In this document: piece after piece, positions 10,920 to 56,602 of the stretch
Layout: each line of letters opens with the position of its first letter
How positions within the stretch are numbered: the stretch's first letter is position 1
NCBI GenBank assembly: GCA_030390025.1
Contig: CM059432.1
Span: 59,212,001-59,276,000 of the forward strand
From: Squalus acanthias
Lineage: Eukaryota
DNA: 64,000 bases
Reading direction: 5' to 3'
Translations under genes and position numbers: made by a program
Notes under the pieces: generated by a model
What the model was told of the DNA's origin: nothing
Seen by the model: the letters and a program-made list of their open reading frames with translations, nothing else
Databases searched by the model: none

Positions 10920-10999
10920 GCCACCTTCAAAGATTTGTGTATGATTACTTAAATTGAGACAGTGCTGAATAAACTATTTTAAGCGAACAACTTTAATTT

Positions 11000-11280
11000 T
11001 TAATAAAACAGAAAATGCTGGAAACACTCAGCAGGTCAAGCTGCATCTGTGGAGAGAAACAGAGGTAACGTTTCAGGTCGATGACCCTTCGTCAGAACTG
11101 GAAGAAGTTAGAGATGGACTTTAATTTTTAAGTAGCTTCAGGAGGGATAAGGGCGAGTCAGTATCATTAAAACTGAACTGTAAAGTAGAATTCTGTTGAA
11201 AGGCCGCACTCAAACATTAACCTGCTTTATTTCCTCTTTTAGAAGCTGATCAACCTAATGTGCATTTCAAACATTATCTG
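11000..11280. mobile_element. Penelope-like element terminal-repeat (pLTR) relics in inverted arrangement
   Basis: 11000-11110 on the minus strand carries a hammerhead core; 11190-11280 is a degenerate plus-strand copy of the same sequence. Confidence 0.6.
11063..11099 (-). ncRNA. Minimal type I hammerhead ribozyme motif
   Basis: Minus strand: AGUU-CUGACGA-A-GGGUC(AUC)GACCU-GAAA-CG-UU-ACCU; conserved core, 5-bp helix II, palindromic ACGU helix III, helix I with one mismatch. Confidence 0.7.
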
Positions 11281-23639: not shown

Positions 23640-24852
23640 AAGTGGGAATCAGAGATGCCGGCGCTCAGGATAGAGAACCCGCTGTCAACCTGCCTCCACA
23701 CGAGTCTCCCAGGTGTCGGGTCTGTCGGCGCTGAACAGACCCGACACCCAGCGGCGGGGGAGGCAATTCACATCATTAAATGGGTTGTTAACATCCAATT
23801 AACTGTTATTTTAAGCCTACATTTCAATTTTACGTGCTCCCCCATGGGTTACCCACTGCTCGGGGAACACGTCAGCTCAGCATGTCATGAATGGATTCAG
23901 CATTGAATTATCTTATGACCTGACAGCTGCCAAAGTTGTATGAAAGATCCCATGTTACAGCTGTTCACTTTCAAAACTCAGAAACCATTGCTGACTGCAT
24001 TTGGAAGACATATTGAGCTTTCTGCAGCTTGCAAGTGTTTGCAGCCAACTCTGTATACAGTGCCACCTCATTGGAACAACCTCTCTCACCATTGACAGAT
24101 CGCTTCTGTCATCTCAACCTCACCTGCCATCTATTCCATCAGCATCGTTGCCCTTGAAAATATCTCACCATGGTCCTAAGAATCCCACCAAGATCAACCC
24201 CAACACCAGCATCACCATCACTGGGCACACCAGCAGCAACAACAACAACACCAGCCTTCTCCGCAATCAACTGATGCTGCAAGGACAGAGGGCATCAGCA
24301 CCCGACCACATTGCTGCCCAGGAGGCCAGGGATGGCCTCAACATGGCCAGATTTACTTCACTTGACACTGTACACTCTGGCTGCCACATGATGTGCCAGG
24401 TTGGCACCACCCCACACCAACGCCATAAAGCATCCCTACAATGCCCAAGCCATTCCTTTCACACTCATCTCCATTGTGGGGGGGGGGGGGGGGGGGGGGT
24501 ACCGTTATGTCTCAACATTCACTGCAACTCACTAAGCCACTTCCAAAGGTGCACACAAATCTGTCCAAGAACGTAAAGTGTTGAAAATAAAGGTTTCAAT
24601 GTTTGACACCACATTAACAGAAACTTTACATGAACATTGCATAAAACACCCAAGTGCCTACCCTGGTGTGTTGTGAGTTGGTATGCTTGCAGTAGGATGA
24701 GGGTGCGTGTGGCTTGGCAGTAACGTTTCATGATCTACTGGGATCATTGAAAGGCTTGCACCACTGCAGCCTAGTCCTCCCGACGACATCCCTGCTTGTG
24801 CCCTCCTGTGCAATGTGCAACCAGGCTGCGTTGATCTCCTGGGGAGGTCTCT
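23640..24852. mobile_element. Probable decayed Harbinger derivative
   Basis: GC-rich start, Q/H/P-rich low-complexity stretch and internal AATAAA; architecture resembles other Harbinger relics here but no clear TIR or catalytic motif was seen. Confidence 0.35.
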
Positions 24853-27603: not shown

Positions 27604-28173
27604 GGTGTTTCTGACCAATTTCCCCTTCTCTAACCCAGGGGCACTAATGGCCCAAGCTATTGCTCTGACTGAAATCATCTAACTTAGTACAGACCAGGGA
27701 TTGAACTGAAGACTTTTCTGATCTACATGGCTCAGGTAACCACTGCCTTAACCAGCTGAACCCTCAGAGAGGACCAGTTCTGCCCTTTACAGAAAATTAA
27801 TTCAAAACTTCAGTTTTCTTCGTTCAACAAATTATCTCACCAGCTTCATCATATTATTGCAGTAATTCCAACAATTCGGGGGCTAAATTCGATATGCCCC
27901 AAAAACGGGCGCAGAGATCGCGATGCGCGAATAATCCACGCCCATTGATTATAATGCAAACATTGTGTTGCCTGCTCATTTAAATTATTTCAGCATGCAA
28001 TCGGCGCTAACTGCTCTGTTGATTGGCTGCATGCATCAGCAGGGGGCCCAAAATCGTAAAGTACTAGCACCAGTTAAAGCTAGCCTGCACCTCTTAAAGG
28101 GGAGGTGCATTGTGGCTGCAACAGCTGCTGGCAGTCATTCAGGAAGTGAAACTGGCCTGGGATTTAGTGAAGA

Positions 28174-28413
28174 ATGCCGCAACATGGGAAAGAGCGGGCT
28201 CCAATGTTTTCGGATGCTGTGCTGGCGGTTTTGGTGAAGAAGGTGCAAAGTAGGAGAGAACTCCTGTATCCACAGGGGGCCAGGAGGCCCTCCAGACACA
28301 TGCTCAGAAGGAAGTGGGAGGAGATAGCTGTGGAAGTCAATGCCAGGAGTCAAGCCCCGAGGACCTGGGTGCAGTGCCGAAAGAAGTTCAATGAACTCCC
28401 ACGAGTGGTCAAG
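28174..28413 (+). pseudogene. Harbinger Myb/SANT-like DNA-binding protein, first exon
   Basis: RAPMFSDAVLAVLVKKVQSRRELLY...WEEIAVEVNARSQAPRTWVQCRKKFNEL; open for 80 codons and ends at a donor AAG|GTCAGT. Confidence 0.85.
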
Positions 28414-28539
28414 GTCAGTGAATGCATCTTCAAATGCCATATCCTACCAACTGCATCACAACCTCAGCCACTGTTCAATGCACCACACCCTATCACTCAC
28501 CTACCAACAATCACCTCCCATGTCATCAGCGGACAGCTC

Positions 28540-29279
28540 ATGTCGCCTAGTAGCCAACCTTTGGTTTGCCATGGTGGCTGAAGTGCAGCTGGCACAGTGG
28601 ACTGCCACAGAATGAAGGCATCATAACTGCTGCCAGGATACCGGGCATTGACCTGCATGACTCACTGCTAATGGCCATATGCCAGCTGGACGTTCAGGGA
28701 GCGGAATCCCTTTTGGTTCTGGTACATGGCAGAGTTGACATGCCATGCCCATAAAGCGATGTGCGTACAGTCACTGGCACCGGGCACCATGTGGAAGTCT
28801 GCATTCTGAGCAAAGCCGCGTGCTCGCACCACCTGCTGGTCTCTGGCAAGAGAGAATGAAATGTAGTCAGCTCTCTGTGAAGAGAGCCTCGGTGACCTCC
28901 CTTACGCAACAGTGGATGTCAAACTGCAAGATGTTGCAAATATCTCCAGCTCCAACCTGGGAGGAGCATAAAAGTTCGTTGCCACGGTCAGCTTCACCAC
29001 CACTGGCAATGCGGTCCTTGCCCTGCTCTGAGGTTGCAGTTGTGGCTGAAGCAGAGGGCAGATTTCAGTGAGGATGTCCTTACTTAAGCGCATACGCCTC
29101 ACATATTGTTCCTCGCTGAAGATCAGGTAGGAGAATTGCTCCCTGGGTGGATATGGTCTCCTGCTGAGAGCCTTTCTCCCCCTCCTCCCTCTTCCAGCAG
29201 CTTGTCGAGTTCTGTGTGGCCTCTATTCATTCTCCAAGTCATGCTGTATTCCAAGAGGAATTCCACTAGTGCACCTATG
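28540..29279 (-). pseudogene. HARBI1-like DDE transposase relic (frameshifted)
   Basis: Reverse strand pieces: EEQYVRRMRLSKDILTEIC..LPVVVKLTVATNFYA; PMVPGASDCTHIAL; YQNQKGFRSLNVQL; VNARYPGSSYDAFIL. Confidence 0.9.
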
Positions 29280-34190: not shown

Positions 34191-34640
34191 TAATTGGACC
34201 ACATCATAAACAGGAACGTTGACTGATTTTCTCCTGTGCAGCTCAGGGCACCGATACCATAAAACACTCCAGCTAAAATCAGCAAACATCAGGGATCGAA
34301 CTTGGGACCTTCCTAGTCTGCACCGGCTACACAGTTCCTTTACCAAGTAACTGTTATTTATCATCTTGACATTGATGATAGTGAATGTACAGCAGATATG
34401 TCATGGCTAGCAGTGAAACATGATTAATCTGATCAAATGAGATTAACAAATAAAACCTGCGGCTCAAGTCACTTCACATTATTATTCAACATATTCTCAC
34501 ATGTATCGTAGCTCAATGACAAACTGGCTTCATAGAGCGGCTGTACCCAACTTTCAAAGACTGGAAAATCAATCATTTAACAGCAAAAAGAGTCCTTTAA
34601 ATTAATCTCTGACTGTAATTATACTTTTATACAATTATAC

Positions 34641-34746
34641 TTCGTCAGGTACCTTTACCTGACGAAGGGCCAGCAGCTCCGAAAGCTCGTAATTTTAAAT
34701 AAAACTGTTGGACTATAACCTGGTGTTGTGCGACTTCTCATTTTTG
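34641..34746 (+). mobile_element. 106-bp Penelope-like pLTR fragment with 9-bp TSD
   Basis: Flanked by CAATTATAC at 34632-34640 and 34747-34755; contains a hammerhead core followed by AATAAA; 5' inverted duplication. Confidence 0.7.
34655..34692 (+). ncRNA. Minimal type I hammerhead ribozyme motif
   Basis: UUAC-CUGACGA-A-GGGC(CAGCA)GCUC-C-GAAA-GC-UC-GUAA: helix I UUAC/GUAA, helix II GGGC/GCUC, palindromic AGCU helix III; predicted cleavage after C34688. Confidence 0.72.
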
Positions 34747-34832
34747 CAATTATACGGGCAGATACCAGTCTCAAATTGGTATCTCTGGGTTCTAATGCAC
34801 AGTCAGCAGATTAGTTTTACTTACTCAGTGCA

Positions 34833-35185
34833 TATAGAATTACATAGAATATACAGCACAGAAACAACCAGTCCATGCTGCTGTTTATGCTCAACTCGAG
34901 CCTCCTCCCATCCTCCCTCATCTAACTCTATCAGCATAACCTTCTATTCCCTTCTCCCTCCTATGCTTTTCTAGCCTCCCCTTAAATGCATCTATGCTAT
35001 TCGCTTCAACCACTCCCTGTGGTAGCGAGTTCCACATTCTCACCACTCTCTGGGTAAAGAAGTTTTGTCTGAAATCCCTATTTGATTTCTTGGTGACTAT
35101 CTTATATTGATGGCCTCTAGTTATGCTCTTCCCCACAAATGGAAACACTCTCTCTGTGTCTAATCTATCAAAACCTTTCATTATT
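34833..35185 (-). mobile_element. CR1 LINE 3' end
   Basis: ORF 34918-35181 (TRGHQYK..NFFTQRVVRMWNSLP); tail ATAGAATTACATAGAAT. Confidence 0.9.
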
Positions 35186-39222: not shown

Positions 39223-39358
39223 TAAATCAGAAAATGCTGCAAACACTCAGCAGGTCAGGCAGCATCCGTGGAGAAAGAAACAGAGTTCATGTCTCAGGTC
39301 GAGATGCTGCCTGACCAGCTGAATATTTCCAGCATCTTATGCTGTCATTTCTGATTTA
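39223..39358. mobile_element. Fold-back relic of the same Penelope-like pLTR family as 11000-11110
   Basis: CAGAAAATGCTGCAAACACTCAGCAGGTCAGGCAGCATC followed by its imperfect reverse complement GATGCTGCCTGACCAGCTGAATATTTCCAGCAT; hammerhead core deleted. Confidence 0.65.
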
Positions 39359-50142: not shown

Positions 50143-51134
50143 GCCGCTCCACCACACGTACAGCGGCACGTACAGGAACAAGGAATTTGGCCCCCTCCCC
50201 CACTGAAGTGGTTTACTGGTGTGATATGTACCATCTCCCCACTAGTCATCACTAACATTGTCACGAACAAAATTTACCAGATCTAGGACCTAATTACTAT
50301 CAGTTGAATTAAATATCATGTCAGTAGTTTTAAAATGATCATTAATCATCAAAATATAAAACAATACATTTTGTGGTATTAAGGAATCTACTAAGGCCCT
50401 TTGCATATATCCAACCATTGATGTACACTTGTAAAAGATATAGCAGATATAAAGTCACTGATTAATAACTGTATTTCCTGACCGTGGGAATAAACTCTGA
50501 AGCAATTATCCAAATGCATGAAAATGTTACCACATTTTACTCGAGCATTATTTCTAAATATTTTTTACAATGACCCAGGAGCCAAGATTTTCCATTCATC
50601 CTCTCCCAATTTCTCAGAACTGGGACAGACAGGAGCAGGACATGGGTCATGGATTTATTCTGCTGGCCCTGTCAAAAGCGACAATTGATATACAATATGT
50701 ACACCCATATATGGCCAAACATACTACAATGAATTTCAAAAGATGCAAATACATCATCCAATGTATTTCCTGTCATTTGCAGCATAGCAACACCACGCAT
50801 CAGGGATTCTCATATGTCTCTAGCAACTGCTGTTACTATGGCAGCGGCGGAAGATATTTATAATTTAAAGCTAGTGCAGGGTGATAACTGCTGTCTTTAG
50901 CAAGATTTTCAATTATTTTTTAACATTCAACCAGCAGCACAGAGGCCACCAGCCATGCTACACTGCAGCACAGCTCTGAGGTGTGCCACACTCAATCTCT
51001 GCCAATCGTCAACCCCAGCTGGCAGACTCCCCAGTGGAAGATGTGGAGCCACCTAAATTATTCAAATAGCCCGAGGGCCAGAAATTTGGATAAGTCAGGG
51101 GTGCAACTTTGTGCCAGTTCTGCAATAGTGGCAT

Positions 51135-54100
51135 ATCTAGACTAGAGTTTGGACTATTTGGCCTAGGGTTTGGACTATTTGGCCGAGGGTTTGGAATATT
51201 TGGCCTAGGGTTTGGAATATTTGGCCTAGGGTTTCGAATATTTGGCCTAGGGTTTGGAATATTTGGCCTAGGGTTTGGAATATTTGGCCTAGGGTTTGGA
51301 CTATTTGGCCTAGGGTTTGGAATATTTGGCCTAGGGTTTGGAATATTTGGCCTAGGTTTAGAATATTTGGCCTAGGGTTTGGAATATTTGGCCTAGGTTT
51401 AGAATATTTGGCCTAGGGTTTGGAACATTTGGCCTAGGGTTTAGAATATTTGGCCTAGGGTTTGGAATATTTGGCATAGAGTTTGGAATATATATTTGGC
51501 CTAGGGTTCGGAATATTTGGCCAAGGGTTTGGAACATTTGGCCTAGGGTTTGGAACATTTGGCCTAGGGTTTGGACTATCTGGCCTAGAGTTTGGAATAT
51601 CTGGCCTAGAGTTTGGAATATTTGGCCTAGAGTTTGGAATATTTGGCCTACGGTTTGGACTATCTGGCCTAGGGTTCAGAATATTTGGCCTAGGGTTCGG
51701 GATATTTGGCCTGGGGTTCGGGATATTTGCCCTGGGGTTCGGAATATTTGGCCTTGTGTTTGGACTATCTGGCCTAGGGTTTAGAATATTTGGCCTAGGG
51801 TTCAGGATATTTGGCCTAGGGTTCGGGATATTTGGCCTGGGGTTCGGGATATTTGCCCTGGGGTTCGGAATATTTGCCCGAGGGTTTGGACTATCTGGCC
51901 TAGAGTTTGGAATATCTGGCCTAGGGTTTGGAATATTTGGCCTAGGGTTTGGAATATCTGGCCTAGGGTTTGGAATATTTGGCCTAGGGTTTAGAATATT
52001 TGGCCTAGGGTTCGGATATTTGGCCTAGGGTTCGGGATATTTGGCCTAGGGTTCGGGATATTTGGCCTAGGGTTCGGGATATTTGGCCTAGGGTTCGGGA
52101 TATTTGGCCTAGGGTTCGGGATATTTGCCCGAGGGTTCGAAATATTTGCCCGAGGGTTCGAAATATTTGGCCTAGTGTTTGGAATATTTGGCGTAGTGTT
52201 TGGACTATCTGGCCTAGGGTTCGGAATATTTGGCCTAGAGTTTGGACTATCTGGCCTAGGGTTCGGAATATTTGACCTAGGGTTCGGAATATTTGGCCTA
52301 GGGTTTGGAATATTTGGCCTGGAGTTCGGAATACTTGCCCGAGGGTTCGGAATATTTGGCCTAGGGTTTGGAATATTTGGCCTAGGGTTTGGAATATTTG
52401 CCCGAGGGTTTGGAATATTTGGCCTATGGTTTGGACTATTTGGCCTAGAGTTCGGAATATTTGGCCATGGGTTCGGAATATTTGGCCTAGGGTTCGGAAT
52501 ATTTGGCCTAGGGTTTGGAATATTTGGCCATGGGTTTGGAATATTTGGCCTAGGGTTCAGAATATTTGGCCTAGAGTTTGGAATATTTGGCCAAGAGTTT
52601 GGAATATTTGGCCTAGAGTTTGGAACATTTGGCCTAGAGTTTGGAACATTTGGCCTAGAGTTTGGAATATTTGGCCTAGGGTTCGGACTATCTGGCCTAG
52701 GGTTCGGAATATTTGGCCTAGGGTTCGGACTATCTGGCCTAGGGTTCGGAATATTTGGCCTAGGGTTCAGAATATTTGGTCTAGGGTTTGGAATATTTGG
52801 CCTAGTGTTTGGACTATCTGGCCTAGGGTTCGGAATATTTGGCCTAGGGTTTGGAATATTTGGCCTAGGGTTTGGAACATTTGGCCTAGGGTTTGGACTA
52901 TCTGGCCTAGAGTTTGGAATATCTGGCCTAGAGTTTGGAATATTTGGCCTAGAGTTTGGAATATTTGGCCTAGGGTTCAGAATATTTGGCCTAGGGTTCG
53001 GGATATTTGGCCTAGTGTTCGGAATATTTGCCCGAGGGTTCGGAATATTTGCCCGAGGGTTCGGAATATTTGCCCGAGGGTTCGGAATATTTGGCCTAGT
53101 GTTTGGACTATCTGGCCTAGGGTTTAGAATATTTGGCCTAGGGTTCGGGATATTTGGCCTAGGGTTCGGTATATTTGGCCTAGGGTTCGGGATATTTGCC
53201 CGAGGGTTCGGGATATTTGCCCGAGGGTTCGGAATATTTGCCCGAGGGTTCAGAATATTTGGCCTAGTGTTTGGACTATCTGGCCTAGGGTTTGGAATAT
53301 TTGGCCTAGGGTTTGGACTATCTGGCCTAGGGTTCGGGATATTTGCCCGAGGGTTCGAAATATTTGCCCGAGGGTTCGGAATATTTGGCCTAGTGTTTGG
53401 AATATTTGGCGTAGTGTTTAGACTATCTGGCCTAGGGTTTGGAATATTTGGCCTAGGGTTTGGACTATCTGGCCTAGGGTTTGGAATATTTGGCCTAGAG
53501 TTTGGACTATCTGGCCTAGGGTTCGGAATATTTGACCTAGGGTTCGGAATATTTGGCCTGGAGTTCGGAATACTTGCCCGAGGGTTCGGAATATTTGGCC
53601 TAGGGTTTGGAATATTTGGCCTAGGGTTTGGAATATTTGCCCGAGGGTTTGGAATATTTGGCCTATCATTTGGACTATTTGGCCTAGAGTTCGGAATATT
53701 TGGCCTGGAGTTCGGAATATTTGGCCTAGGGTTCGGAATATTTGGCCTAGGGTTTGGAATATTTGGCCTAGGGTTCGGACTATCTGGCCTAGGGTTCGGA
53801 CTATCTGGCCTAGGGTTCGGACTATCTGGCCTAGGGTTCGGACTATCTGGCCTAGGGTTCGGACTATCTGGCCTAAGGTTCAGAATATTTGGCCTAGAGT
53901 TTGGAATATTTGGCCAAGAGTTTGGAATATTTGGCCTAGGGTTCAGAATATTTGGCCTAGAGTTTGGAATATTTGGCCTAGGGTTCGGACTATCTGGCCT
54001 AGGGTTCAGAATATTTGGTCTAGGGTAGACTATCTGGCCTAGGGTTCGGAATATCTGGCCTAGTGTTCAGAATATTTGGTCTAGAGTTCAGAATATTTGG

Positions 54101-56420
54101 CCTAGGGTTTGGAATATTTGGCCTAGGGTTTGGAATATTTGGCCTAGGGTTCAGAATATTTGGTCTAGAGTTCGGAATATTTGGCTTAGGGTTTGGAATA
54201 TTTGGCCTAGGGTTCGGAATATTTGGCCTAGGGTTTGGAATATTTGACCTAGGGTTTGGAATATTTGGCCTAGTGTCCAGAATATTTGGTCTAGAGTTTG
54301 GAATATTTGGCCTAGTGTTCAGAATATTTGGTCTAGAGTTTGGAATATTTGGCCTAGGGTTCGGAATATTTGGCCTAGGGTTTGGAATATTTGGCCTCGG
54401 GTTTGGAATATTTGCCCGAGGGTTCGGAATATTTGGCCTAGGGTTTGGAATATTTGGCCTAGGGTTTGGAATATTTGGTCTAGAGTTTGGAATATTTGGC
54501 CTCGGGTTTGGAATATTTGCCCGAGGGTTCGGAATATTTGGCCTAGGGTTTGGAATATTTGGCCTAGGGTTTGGAATATTTGGTCTAGAGTTTGGAATAT
54601 TTGGCCTCGTGTTCAGAATATTTGGCCTAGGGTTTGGAATATTTGGCCTAGGGTTCAGAATATTTGGTCTAGAGTTTGGAATATTTGGCCTAGGGTTCAG
54701 AATATTTGGCCTAGGGTTTGGAATATTTGGCCTAGGGTTCGGAATATTTGCCCGAGGGTTCGGAATATTTGGCCCAGAGTTTGGAATATTTGGCCTAGGG
54801 TTCGGGATATTTGGCCTAGTGTTTGGAATATTTGCCCGAGGGTTCGGAATATTTGCCCGAGGGTTCGGAATATTTGCCCGACGGTTCGGAATATTTGGCC
54901 TAGTGTTTGGAATATTTGGTCTAGAGTTTGGAATATTTGGCCTAGGGTTCGAAAAATTTGCCCGAGTGTTCGGAATATTTGCCCGAGGGTTCAGAATATT
55001 TGGCCTAGGGTTTGGAATATTTGGCCTAGGGTTTGGAATATTTGCCCGAGGGTTCGGAATATTTGCCCGAGGGTTCGGAATATTTGGCCTAGGGTTTGGA
55101 ATATTTGGCCTGGAGATCGGAATATTTGCCCGAGGGTTTGGAATATTTGGCCTATGGTTTAGACTATTTGGCCTGGAGTTCGGAATATTTGGCCTGGAGT
55201 TCGGAATATTTGGCCTGGAGTTTGGAATATTTGGCCTGGAGTTCGGAATATTTGGCCATGGGTTCGGAATATTTGGCCTAGAGTTTGGAATGTTTGGCCT
55301 AGGGTTCGGAATATTTGGCCTAGGGTTCGGAATATTTGGCCTAGGGTTCGGAATATTTGGCCTAGGGTTCGGAATATTTGGCCTAGGGTTCGGAACATTT
55401 GGCCTAGGGTTCGGAATATTTGGACTAGGGTTCGGAATATTTGCCCGAGGGTTCGGAATATTTGGCCCAGAGTTTGGAATATTTGGCCTAGGGTTCGGGA
55501 TATTTGGCCTAGTGTTCGGAATATTTGCCCGAGGGTTCGGAATATTTGCCCGAGGGTTCGGAATATTTGCCCGACGGTTCGGAATATTTGGCCTAGAGTT
55601 TGGAATATTTGGCCTAGGGTTTGGAATATTTGTCCTAGGGTTCGAAATATTTGCCCGAGTGTTCGGAATATTTGCCCGAGGGTTCAGAATATTTGGCCTG
55701 GTGTTTGGAATATTTGGCCTAGTGTTTGGAATATTTGGCCTAGAGTTTGGAATATTTGGCCTAGAGTTTGGACTATCTGGCCTAGTGTTCGGAATATTTG
55801 GCCTAGAGTTCGGAATATTTGCCCGAGGGTTCAGAATATTTGGCCTGGTGTTTGGAATATTTGGCCTAGTGTTTGGAATATTTGGCCTAGAGTTTGGAAT
55901 ATTTGGCCTAGAGTTTGGACTATCTGGCCTAGGGTTCGGAATATTTGGCCTGGAGTTCGGAATATTTGGCCTGGAGTTCGGAATATTTGGCCTGGAGTTC
56001 GGAATATTTGGCCTAGAGTTTGGAATGTTTGGCCTAGAGTTTGGAATGTTTGGCCTAGAGTTTGGAATATTTGGCCTAGGGTTTGGAATATTTGGCCTAG
56101 AGTTTGGAATATTTGGCCTGGAGTTCAGAATATTTGGCCTAGGGTTCGGACTATCTGGCCTAGAGTTTGGAACATTTGGCCTAGAGTTTGGAATGTTTGG
56201 CCTAGAGTTTGGAATGTTTGGCCTAGAGTTTGGAATGTTTGGCCTAGAGTTTGGAATATTTGGCCTAGAGTTTGGAATATTTGGCCTAGAGTTTGGAATA
56301 TTTGGCCTAGAGTTTGGAATATTTGGCCTAGGGTTCGGAATATTTGGTCTGGAGTTCGGAATATTTGGCCTAGGGTTCGGAATATTTGGCCTAGGGTTTG
56401 GAATATTTGGCCTAGGGTTT
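51135..56420. repeat. 21-bp minisatellite/satellite array, ~250 units, consensus GGAATATTTGGCCTAGGGTTT
   Basis: Directly visible periodicity over ~5.3 kb with recurring variant units (GCCCGAGG, GGACTATCT, CTAGAG, CTAGTG, TTC/TTT). Confidence 0.99.
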
Positions 56421-56602
56421 ATAAAAGAAGAGTTTCTCCTTCAGGTCTTGTGCAAAGCAGTAATTATTGATCATCTTGTCTATTTTCCAATTACTGTACA
56501 CAAAAGCTCCATTAGCTGGTAGACAAAAGAGATACATGTGTTTTATGCAACTATATTTGAGAATAAGTCAAGTTCCATGCTCACTATAAAACCTGGGATT
56601 AT

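Follow-up and report, generated by a model that had tools for sequence, protein, structure and literature searches.

The locus and its hammerhead motif

The stretch of DNA that we analyzed (the window) is 64,000 nucleotides long, and about 52% of it matches elsewhere within the window. Most of this repeated sequence is debris of LINEs with fragments of reverse transcriptase (RT). The open reading frames (ORFs) of the window have Pfam matches to RT, to the esterase-like domains of LINE ORF1, and to one Myb/SANT domain. (This Myb/SANT-like DNA-binding domain, PF13873, lies at 28171-28578 on the forward strand, with E = 5.4e-13. It is probably the accessory gene of a Harbinger-type transposon.) Pfam recognized no host exon in 150 of the 180 non-repeat ORFs of at least 55 amino acids or in 26 repeat ORFs; such a search overlooks short exons, and the insertion described below may therefore lie in an intron. 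A 21-bp tandem repeat, present in about 240 copies at about 51005-56500, gives rise to spurious open frames of up to 832 amino acids.

The earlier note had described a minimal hammerhead ribozyme within 34632-34755. A check of the letters of the window showed that every element of it lies exactly where that note had placed it:

34655-34692, forward strand: type I minimal hammerhead motif (by consensus fit and descriptor)
34655, forward strand: helix I 5' strand, TTAC (letters)
34659, forward strand: catalytic core, CTGACGA (letters)
34681, forward strand: GAAA (letters)
34684, forward strand: palindromic AGCT (letters)
34686, forward strand: CTC cleavage triplet (letters)
34689, forward strand: helix I 3' strand, GTAA (letters)
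34698-34703, forward strand: AATAAA in an AU-rich stretch 3' of the hammerhead, a putative polyadenylation signal (letters)

As RNA, helix I (UUAC/GUAA, 34655-58 with 34689-92) encloses the core CUGACGA (34659-65), an extra A (34666), a weak helix II (34667-80), GAAA (34681-84), and G-C-U-C (34685-88), with the cut predicted 3' of 34688. The stretch 34655-34692 has all of the basic parts, namely the CUGANGA core, GAAA, and NUH, and it lacks a helix III loop. It also has the features of the minimal hammerheads (min-HHRs) of Penelope-like elements (PLEs), namely the extra base A34666, the pair G34667-C34680, and G34685/C34686 inside the AGCU palindrome. The consensus line in Fig. S3 of PMC4209133 fits the window hammerhead at each item (a U-rich 5' side, CUGANGAH, a G...C helix II, GAAAN, palindromic 15.2-16.2, NUH, and an AU-rich 3' side), and the four family features named in the Discussion of that paper are matched, covariation excepted.

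Helix II is the weak point. In the register that keeps G10.1-C11.1, it has one G-U pair and one C-C mismatch (-0.9 kcal/mol); a slipped register reaches -3.3 kcal/mol but loses G10.1-C11.1. The earlier note's "complete minimal hammerhead" is right about the motifs and their positions, but "complete" does not describe this helix.

The earlier note had also suggested searching with Rfam hammerhead models and with a descriptor, and the two gave different answers. Rfam yielded no hammerhead match at the gathering score in the whole window, nor at E up to 10 in 34400-35000. (The Rfam hammerhead models represent hammerheads that have helix III.) Our strict minimal-hammerhead descriptor, which was composed after the motif had been seen, had one match in the window and none in 200 dinucleotide resamples, and we rejected a chance origin of the motif.

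A descriptor search whose pattern forced the core and AATAAA returned 10 metagenome loci. Six of these are in contigs that are dense in ORFs and resemble those of prokaryotes or phages, and they appear to be chance matches. The other four (L002:87-132, L003:667-716, L006:1795-1847, and L010:3637-3684) have no ORF of at least 150 amino acids; they look like hammerhead motifs followed by AATAAA and are probably eukaryotic DNA. Beyond the motif itself, all 10 lack similarity to the element, and we do not count them as support. Exact stretches of the 3' part of the element were found at no locus in viral, metagenome, or prokaryote contigs and in no paper.

The window also contains a second hammerhead family. 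One copy, at 10990-11131 on the reverse strand, is a 114-bp insert (11004-11117) with a perfect 14-bp target-site duplication (TSD) and no inverted arm. Its core starts at 11095, and its 5' end is 22 nt upstream of the core. At 39223-39341 there is an inverted pair of the same family, with arms of 80 nt and 39 nt that are joined directly and end before the core; we found no convincing TSD at this site. No second copy of the family at 34652-34746 is present in the window, so the hammerhead there is single, not tandem.

The repeat family and the empty site

We aligned contigs from four of 18 runs to 34330-34845 at 80% likeness: X5 (a second sample of organism A, about 55% read), X8 (organism B), X7 (organism C), and X12 (organism F). 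The family is present in all four runs, with 7531 aligned contigs in X5, 874 in X8, 648 in X7, and 1585 in X12. The depth summed over 34708-34725 is 0.8-7.7 million, versus 7-16 in the flanks (a sum of depths, not a copy number). This shows that the family is very abundant in all four runs, and the multi-copy family that the earlier note's reading called for is there.

Where do its members begin and end? Among the X5 matches listed, 17 contigs extend left as far as 34653. At the 3' side, loose ends cluster at 34737-34746, where the window copy also ends. Among the loose ends listed for X5, 66 contigs depart at 34740 (agreement 0.40) and 51 at 34745 (agreement 0.37, median loose-end length 255 nt), in both cases for unrelated sequence. 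In 70 contigs, a short extension rich in AC (median 19 nt) follows 34746. This pattern fits an optional PLE tail combined with an internal start of reverse transcription, as in the PAc element discussed below and in PLEs generally (PMC8557442). The "tiny non-autonomous ribozyme retroelement" of the earlier note is therefore upheld in part: there is a repeated family with a PLE-type minimal hammerhead, here with a 5' inversion, but a fixed 106-bp unit is unsupported, because family members continue into the tail past 34746.

Other copies have a better helix II than the window copy does. Among the loose ends listed, helix II is a perfect 5-bp stem in 13 contigs from organism A, 11 from B, 15 from C, and 6 from F. 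Its fifth pair is swapped from C-G to G-C within the family, and the covariation rests on that one pair. Position 34691 in helix I is variable in the family contigs. H17 is C in the window copy and U in most family contigs (72% of the depth in X5, and about 100% in X8, X7, and X12).

The earlier note took CAATTATAC, at 34632-34640 and 34747-34755, as a 9-bp TSD around a 106-bp insert (34641-34746). The letters of these direct repeats are exact, and the window holds no other copies. Such repeats are common here: there are 113 pairs of 9-bp direct repeats 60-200 nt apart in positions 1-50900, versus 27-51 in each of five resamples.

In two related organisms, B and C, the site is empty. One 585-nt contig in each bridges the insertion site without a gap, aligning to 34330-34613 and then directly to 34745-34845. 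The earlier note's proposal of an insertion is thus borne out, with the orthologous site empty in B and C. But 131 nt (34614-34744) are skipped, whereas a 106-bp insert with a 9-bp TSD predicts that 115 nt would be missing, and those boundaries are not supported. Over 385 letters of flank, B and C differ from the window at 16, and with the site empty there, the insertion is younger than the split of A from B/C. (Because B and C stem from one study and have every listed flank difference in common, we count them as a single lineage.) In organism F, a 38-nt piece of a contig starts at 34587 and stops at 34624 (bin depth 3.81 of 9.79), and the right flank is not bridged. Among the X5 contigs listed, neither junction is bridged.

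The contig from organism F also skips or replaces 91 nt at 34496-34586, which is a separate and older indel in the left flank. In the right flank, a 10-bp hairpin is predicted at about 34760-34786, 5 nt from the insertion site.

Together with the inverted arm described below, we assign the parts of the insertion as follows:

34614-34624, forward strand: likely left TSD copy, TGTAATTATAC, identical to the right copy at 10 of 11 letters (131 = 120 + 11 in B and C; end of the contig from F)
34625-34640, forward strand: 16-nt target-like filler made of the 8-bp units TTTTATAC and AATTATAC (letters; length missing in B and C)
34640-34651, reverse strand: 12-nt inverted copy of 34656-34667, which includes the helix I 5' strand, the core, and the start of helix II (perfect reverse complement)
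34652-34746, forward strand: sense copy of the end module of the family, with the hammerhead, AATAAA, and 3' segment but without the optional tail (contig alignments)
34745-34755, forward strand: likely right TSD copy, TGCAATTATAC (contigs from B and C resume at 34745)

Because 131 nt are missing rather than 115, the insert is more likely 34625-34744 (120 bp), with an 11-bp TSD that has one mismatch and with a 16-nt filler; the 11-bp length comes from what is missing in B and C, not from the letters at the junction. AATTATAC occurs twice in the left flank, at 34617 and 34633, within an 8-bp tandem. The outer copy (34617) fits the empty site (TGTAATTATAC at 34614-24 versus TGCAATTATAC at 34745-55), and the endpoint of the contig from organism F, 34624, agrees with these boundaries. 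The filler continues the AATTATAC of the target, includes the left "TSD" of the earlier note, and shares C34640 with the inverted arm; it probably arose at insertion. At the other end, the initial TG of the right TSD copy also matches the 3' end of the element (a microhomology), and X5 family contigs align to 34746 before entering the tail. As a single event, an 11-bp duplication flanking a 120-bp insert, with the filler as the first part of that insert, is the simplest explanation, and the perfect 9-bp TSD was probably misassigned.

We did consider that the 9-bp TSD and the 106-bp insert are correct and that the extra 16 nt come from a separate slippage duplication in lineage A. The 9-bp repeat is perfect while the 11-bp repeat has a mismatch, and the site is a low-complexity TATAC repeat, both of which are in keeping with this idea. 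But two separate events would have had to strike the same few bases, the whole 131 nt is absent from B and C, and the contig from F stops at 34624. Also, the C at 34632, which counts toward the 9-bp match, likewise ends the 8-bp unit before it. We think these boundaries are unlikely. Since the question concerns boundaries only, either answer is compatible with the fold-back insertion that we propose below.

Likeness to Penelope-like elements

Every feature of PLE insertions that we tested points to the locus as a likely short PLE insertion that carries a minimal hammerhead; this kind of insertion is already known, and the finding is ordinary. The repeat family at 34652-34746 is likely a Penelope-like retroelement.

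First, the hammerhead resembles the PLE min-HHRs described by Cervera and De la Pena (2014; PMC4209133), which are type I, lack a helix III loop, have CUGANGA with one extra base and the pair G10.1-C11.1, have a short helix I and U-rich and AU-rich flanks, and occur mostly as single copies. Palindromic 15.2-16.2 is G-C, and the same G-C-U-C is found in S. mansoni family 1 and Adineta vaga 2 (Fig. S3 of that paper). Most min-HHRs are reported there as single elements that are probably related to truncated PLEs. Unlike these min-HHRs, the window copy has an imperfect helix II. The sections of PMC4209133 available to us describe no 12-nt inversion over the core, and the opposite-strand min-HHR pairs in them are 100-700 bp apart. 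We found no shark example in the available part of its supplement file 2.

Second, the insertion has the features of EN+ PLE insertions: an AT-rich target, a short TSD (11 or 9 bp), an empty orthologous site, clustered internal 3' ends with an optional tail, and a 5' inverted piece (34640-34651). Truncated EN+ PLE inserts likewise combine a short, variable TSD, an AT-rich target, a 5' inverted piece, and an optional 3' tail (PMC3846280, PMC8557442), and inverted 5'-truncated PLE copies are often adjacent (PMC8557442). In Adineta vaga, the Pen2 and Pen3a inserts have an inverted pLTR and TSDs of 8-10 bp, and palindromes of 18 and 38 bp at the 5' ends of pLTRs were interpreted by Arkhipova et al. 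as self-priming (PMC3846280). The window copy differs from Pen2 and Pen3a in that its inverted piece is just 12 nt, with a 4-nt loop, and begins within the hammerhead, not at the end of the pLTR; in addition, it has a 16-nt target-like filler, and no ORF is left. (EN+ PLEs are defined by a single ORF with a telomerase-like RT and a GIY-YIG endonuclease. Pfam found no GIY-YIG domain among 176 ORFs of the window.)

Third, the layout is like that of PAc, a Poseidon-type PLE of Anolis carolinensis (Frangieh et al. 2024, PMC11167929): the hammerhead is about 80-110 nt upstream of internal 3' ends, the tail is AC-rich, and the target contains ATT.

The element could instead be a dedicated short non-autonomous element (SINE-like, or a retrozyme monomer), copied from a short RNA whose start lies just upstream of the hammerhead and mobilized in trans by PLE proteins, so that its 5' end is not a random truncation. 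The sense copy (from about 34653) and the arm (to 34656) do both stop a few nucleotides upstream of helix I, and in the copy of the second family the start is 22 nt ahead of the core. Vertebrates are reported to have retrozyme monomers that derive from PLE pLTRs (bioRxiv 10.64898/2026.07.22.740005), and the animal non-LTR retrozymes of that preprint are short, non-coding, PLE-related, and scattered in genomes as monomers, with a type I hammerhead, as is the case here. But tandem units with two or more hammerheads define those retrozymes, whereas here there is one unit, flanked by a TSD and bearing a 5' inversion. With just one hammerhead copy of this family in the window, we rejected the identification as a retrozyme. 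Also, family members go past the 3' end into the tail, and the aligned contigs cover the 5' ends of other copies only up to where the window copy leaves the family sequence. Overall, a dedicated short element seems improbable to us.

The inverted arm and how it may have formed

The perfect 12-bp inverted repeat that the earlier note had seen over the catalytic core is exact: 34640-34651 is complementary to 34656-34667, with CCTT as the loop. The hairpin predicted for 34640-34700 has z = -4.83. Perfect hairpins of at least 12 bp with a loop of up to 10 nt occur three times in the window and in none of five resamples. (The other two, at 1148-1179 and 23712-23748, are 14-bp hairpins that are unrelated to hammerheads and are possibly the centers of small DNA transposons.)

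Folding predictions suggest that the arm would disable the ribozyme. With the arm, all seven core positions are predicted to be paired (a probability of 0.00 of being unpaired), and folding as a ribozyme would cost 20.6-21.7 kcal/mol relative to the ensemble. Removal of the arm still leaves a gap of 4.2-5.3 kcal/mol, and helix I then pairs just 5-7% of the time. So, of the "antisense lock" proposed in the earlier note, sequestration of the core holds as a prediction (7 of 7 core bases, about 21 kcal/mol), while the silencing of cleavage in a host transcript is unsupported. Literature searches in other wording turned up no description of an antisense lock over a PLE hammerhead.

Could the arm be a functional or selected lock that shields a host transcript from cleavage by the hammerhead? 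The predicted pairing and energies would suit this idea. Also, the AGCU palindrome could permit dimers in trans among the many copies of the family. Dimeric cleavage of PLE hammerheads was reportedly described by Lunse et al. in 2017. The PAc hammerhead was cleaved only with protein, and was dispensable for insertion in vitro (PMC11167929); because its cleavage is protein-assisted, it is uncertain that a monomer is inert in cells. But a single min-HHR of S. mansoni had no detectable cleavage, and its dimers and trimers had low activity (PMC4209133). In the window copy, helix II is weak, no host exon was recognized in the window, and a hammerhead copy elsewhere in the window lacks an arm. Because the insertion is younger than the split of A from B/C, there is no conservation to cite for a lock. 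We consider a selected lock highly improbable. The sequestration that is predicted for the core is likely of no consequence: a minimal hammerhead that stands alone and has a weak helix II would have almost no activity in any case.

We think it quite probable, instead, that the 131-nt gain was built from the hammerhead-bearing end of an abundant repeat, likely a PLE, and that the 12-bp arm is a by-product of its insertion. Palindromes at the 5' end are a described feature of PLEs, so the fold-back is likely an insertion scar of an already described kind. The breakpoints of inversions vary, which we also count in favor of a by-product: among the matches listed, one X5 contig has an opposite-strand joint at 34665/34710, and the inverted pair of the second family (39223-39341) stops short of the core. 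An origin of the arm at the ribozyme's cut site can be rejected, as the arm starts at 34667 and the predicted cut is at 34688.

How might such an insertion arise? Going by what is known of PLE biology, a PLE protein with RT and GIY-YIG would nick an AT-rich target, with ATT on both strands about 11 bp apart. Both target strands may be nicked, by analogy with PAc, for which both strands were cut and extended in vitro (PMC11167929). Reverse transcription would begin at an internal start site just before the tail, and the first-strand cDNA would end about 95 nt on, a few bases upstream of helix I. The end of the cDNA might then fold back and copy 12 nt of itself, or the second target end might prime on the same RNA, judging from the product; the two routes would leave an identical product. 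(Priming by the second target end is known from work on L1 as twin priming.) The end would be joined to the target via a 1-nt microhomology, and slippage during copying of the 8-bp unit of the target would give the 16-nt filler. In a transcript of the forward strand, the arm is predicted to pair with the core and to block the ribozyme fold. The copy in the window was likely dead on arrival.

A bolder idea is that PLE fold-back routinely lays an antisense arm over the core, and that host transcripts tolerate these self-locked copies in their sense strand more readily than unlocked ones, since the latter (by AGCU pairing in trans or with a PLE protein) would cut the pre-mRNA. We regard this as very doubtful.

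The insertion carries little weight alone, being just one among a great many short copies of a repeat that bears a hammerhead and belongs to a described kind. It is of value as a clean worked example, in which the empty site corrects the boundaries. Its junction records a probable fold-back and a templated filler, and so bears on the unresolved step of second-strand synthesis or 5' joining in PLE insertion. The portions of the PLE literature that we consulted leave open whether minimal hammerheads are cleaved in cells. If arms that cover the core were enriched among sense-oriented copies in genes, this would be indirect evidence for such cleavage. And if the idea of self-locked copies were true, the comparison of locked with unlocked copies would be a natural, genome-wide test of cleavage by PLE minimal hammerheads in vivo.
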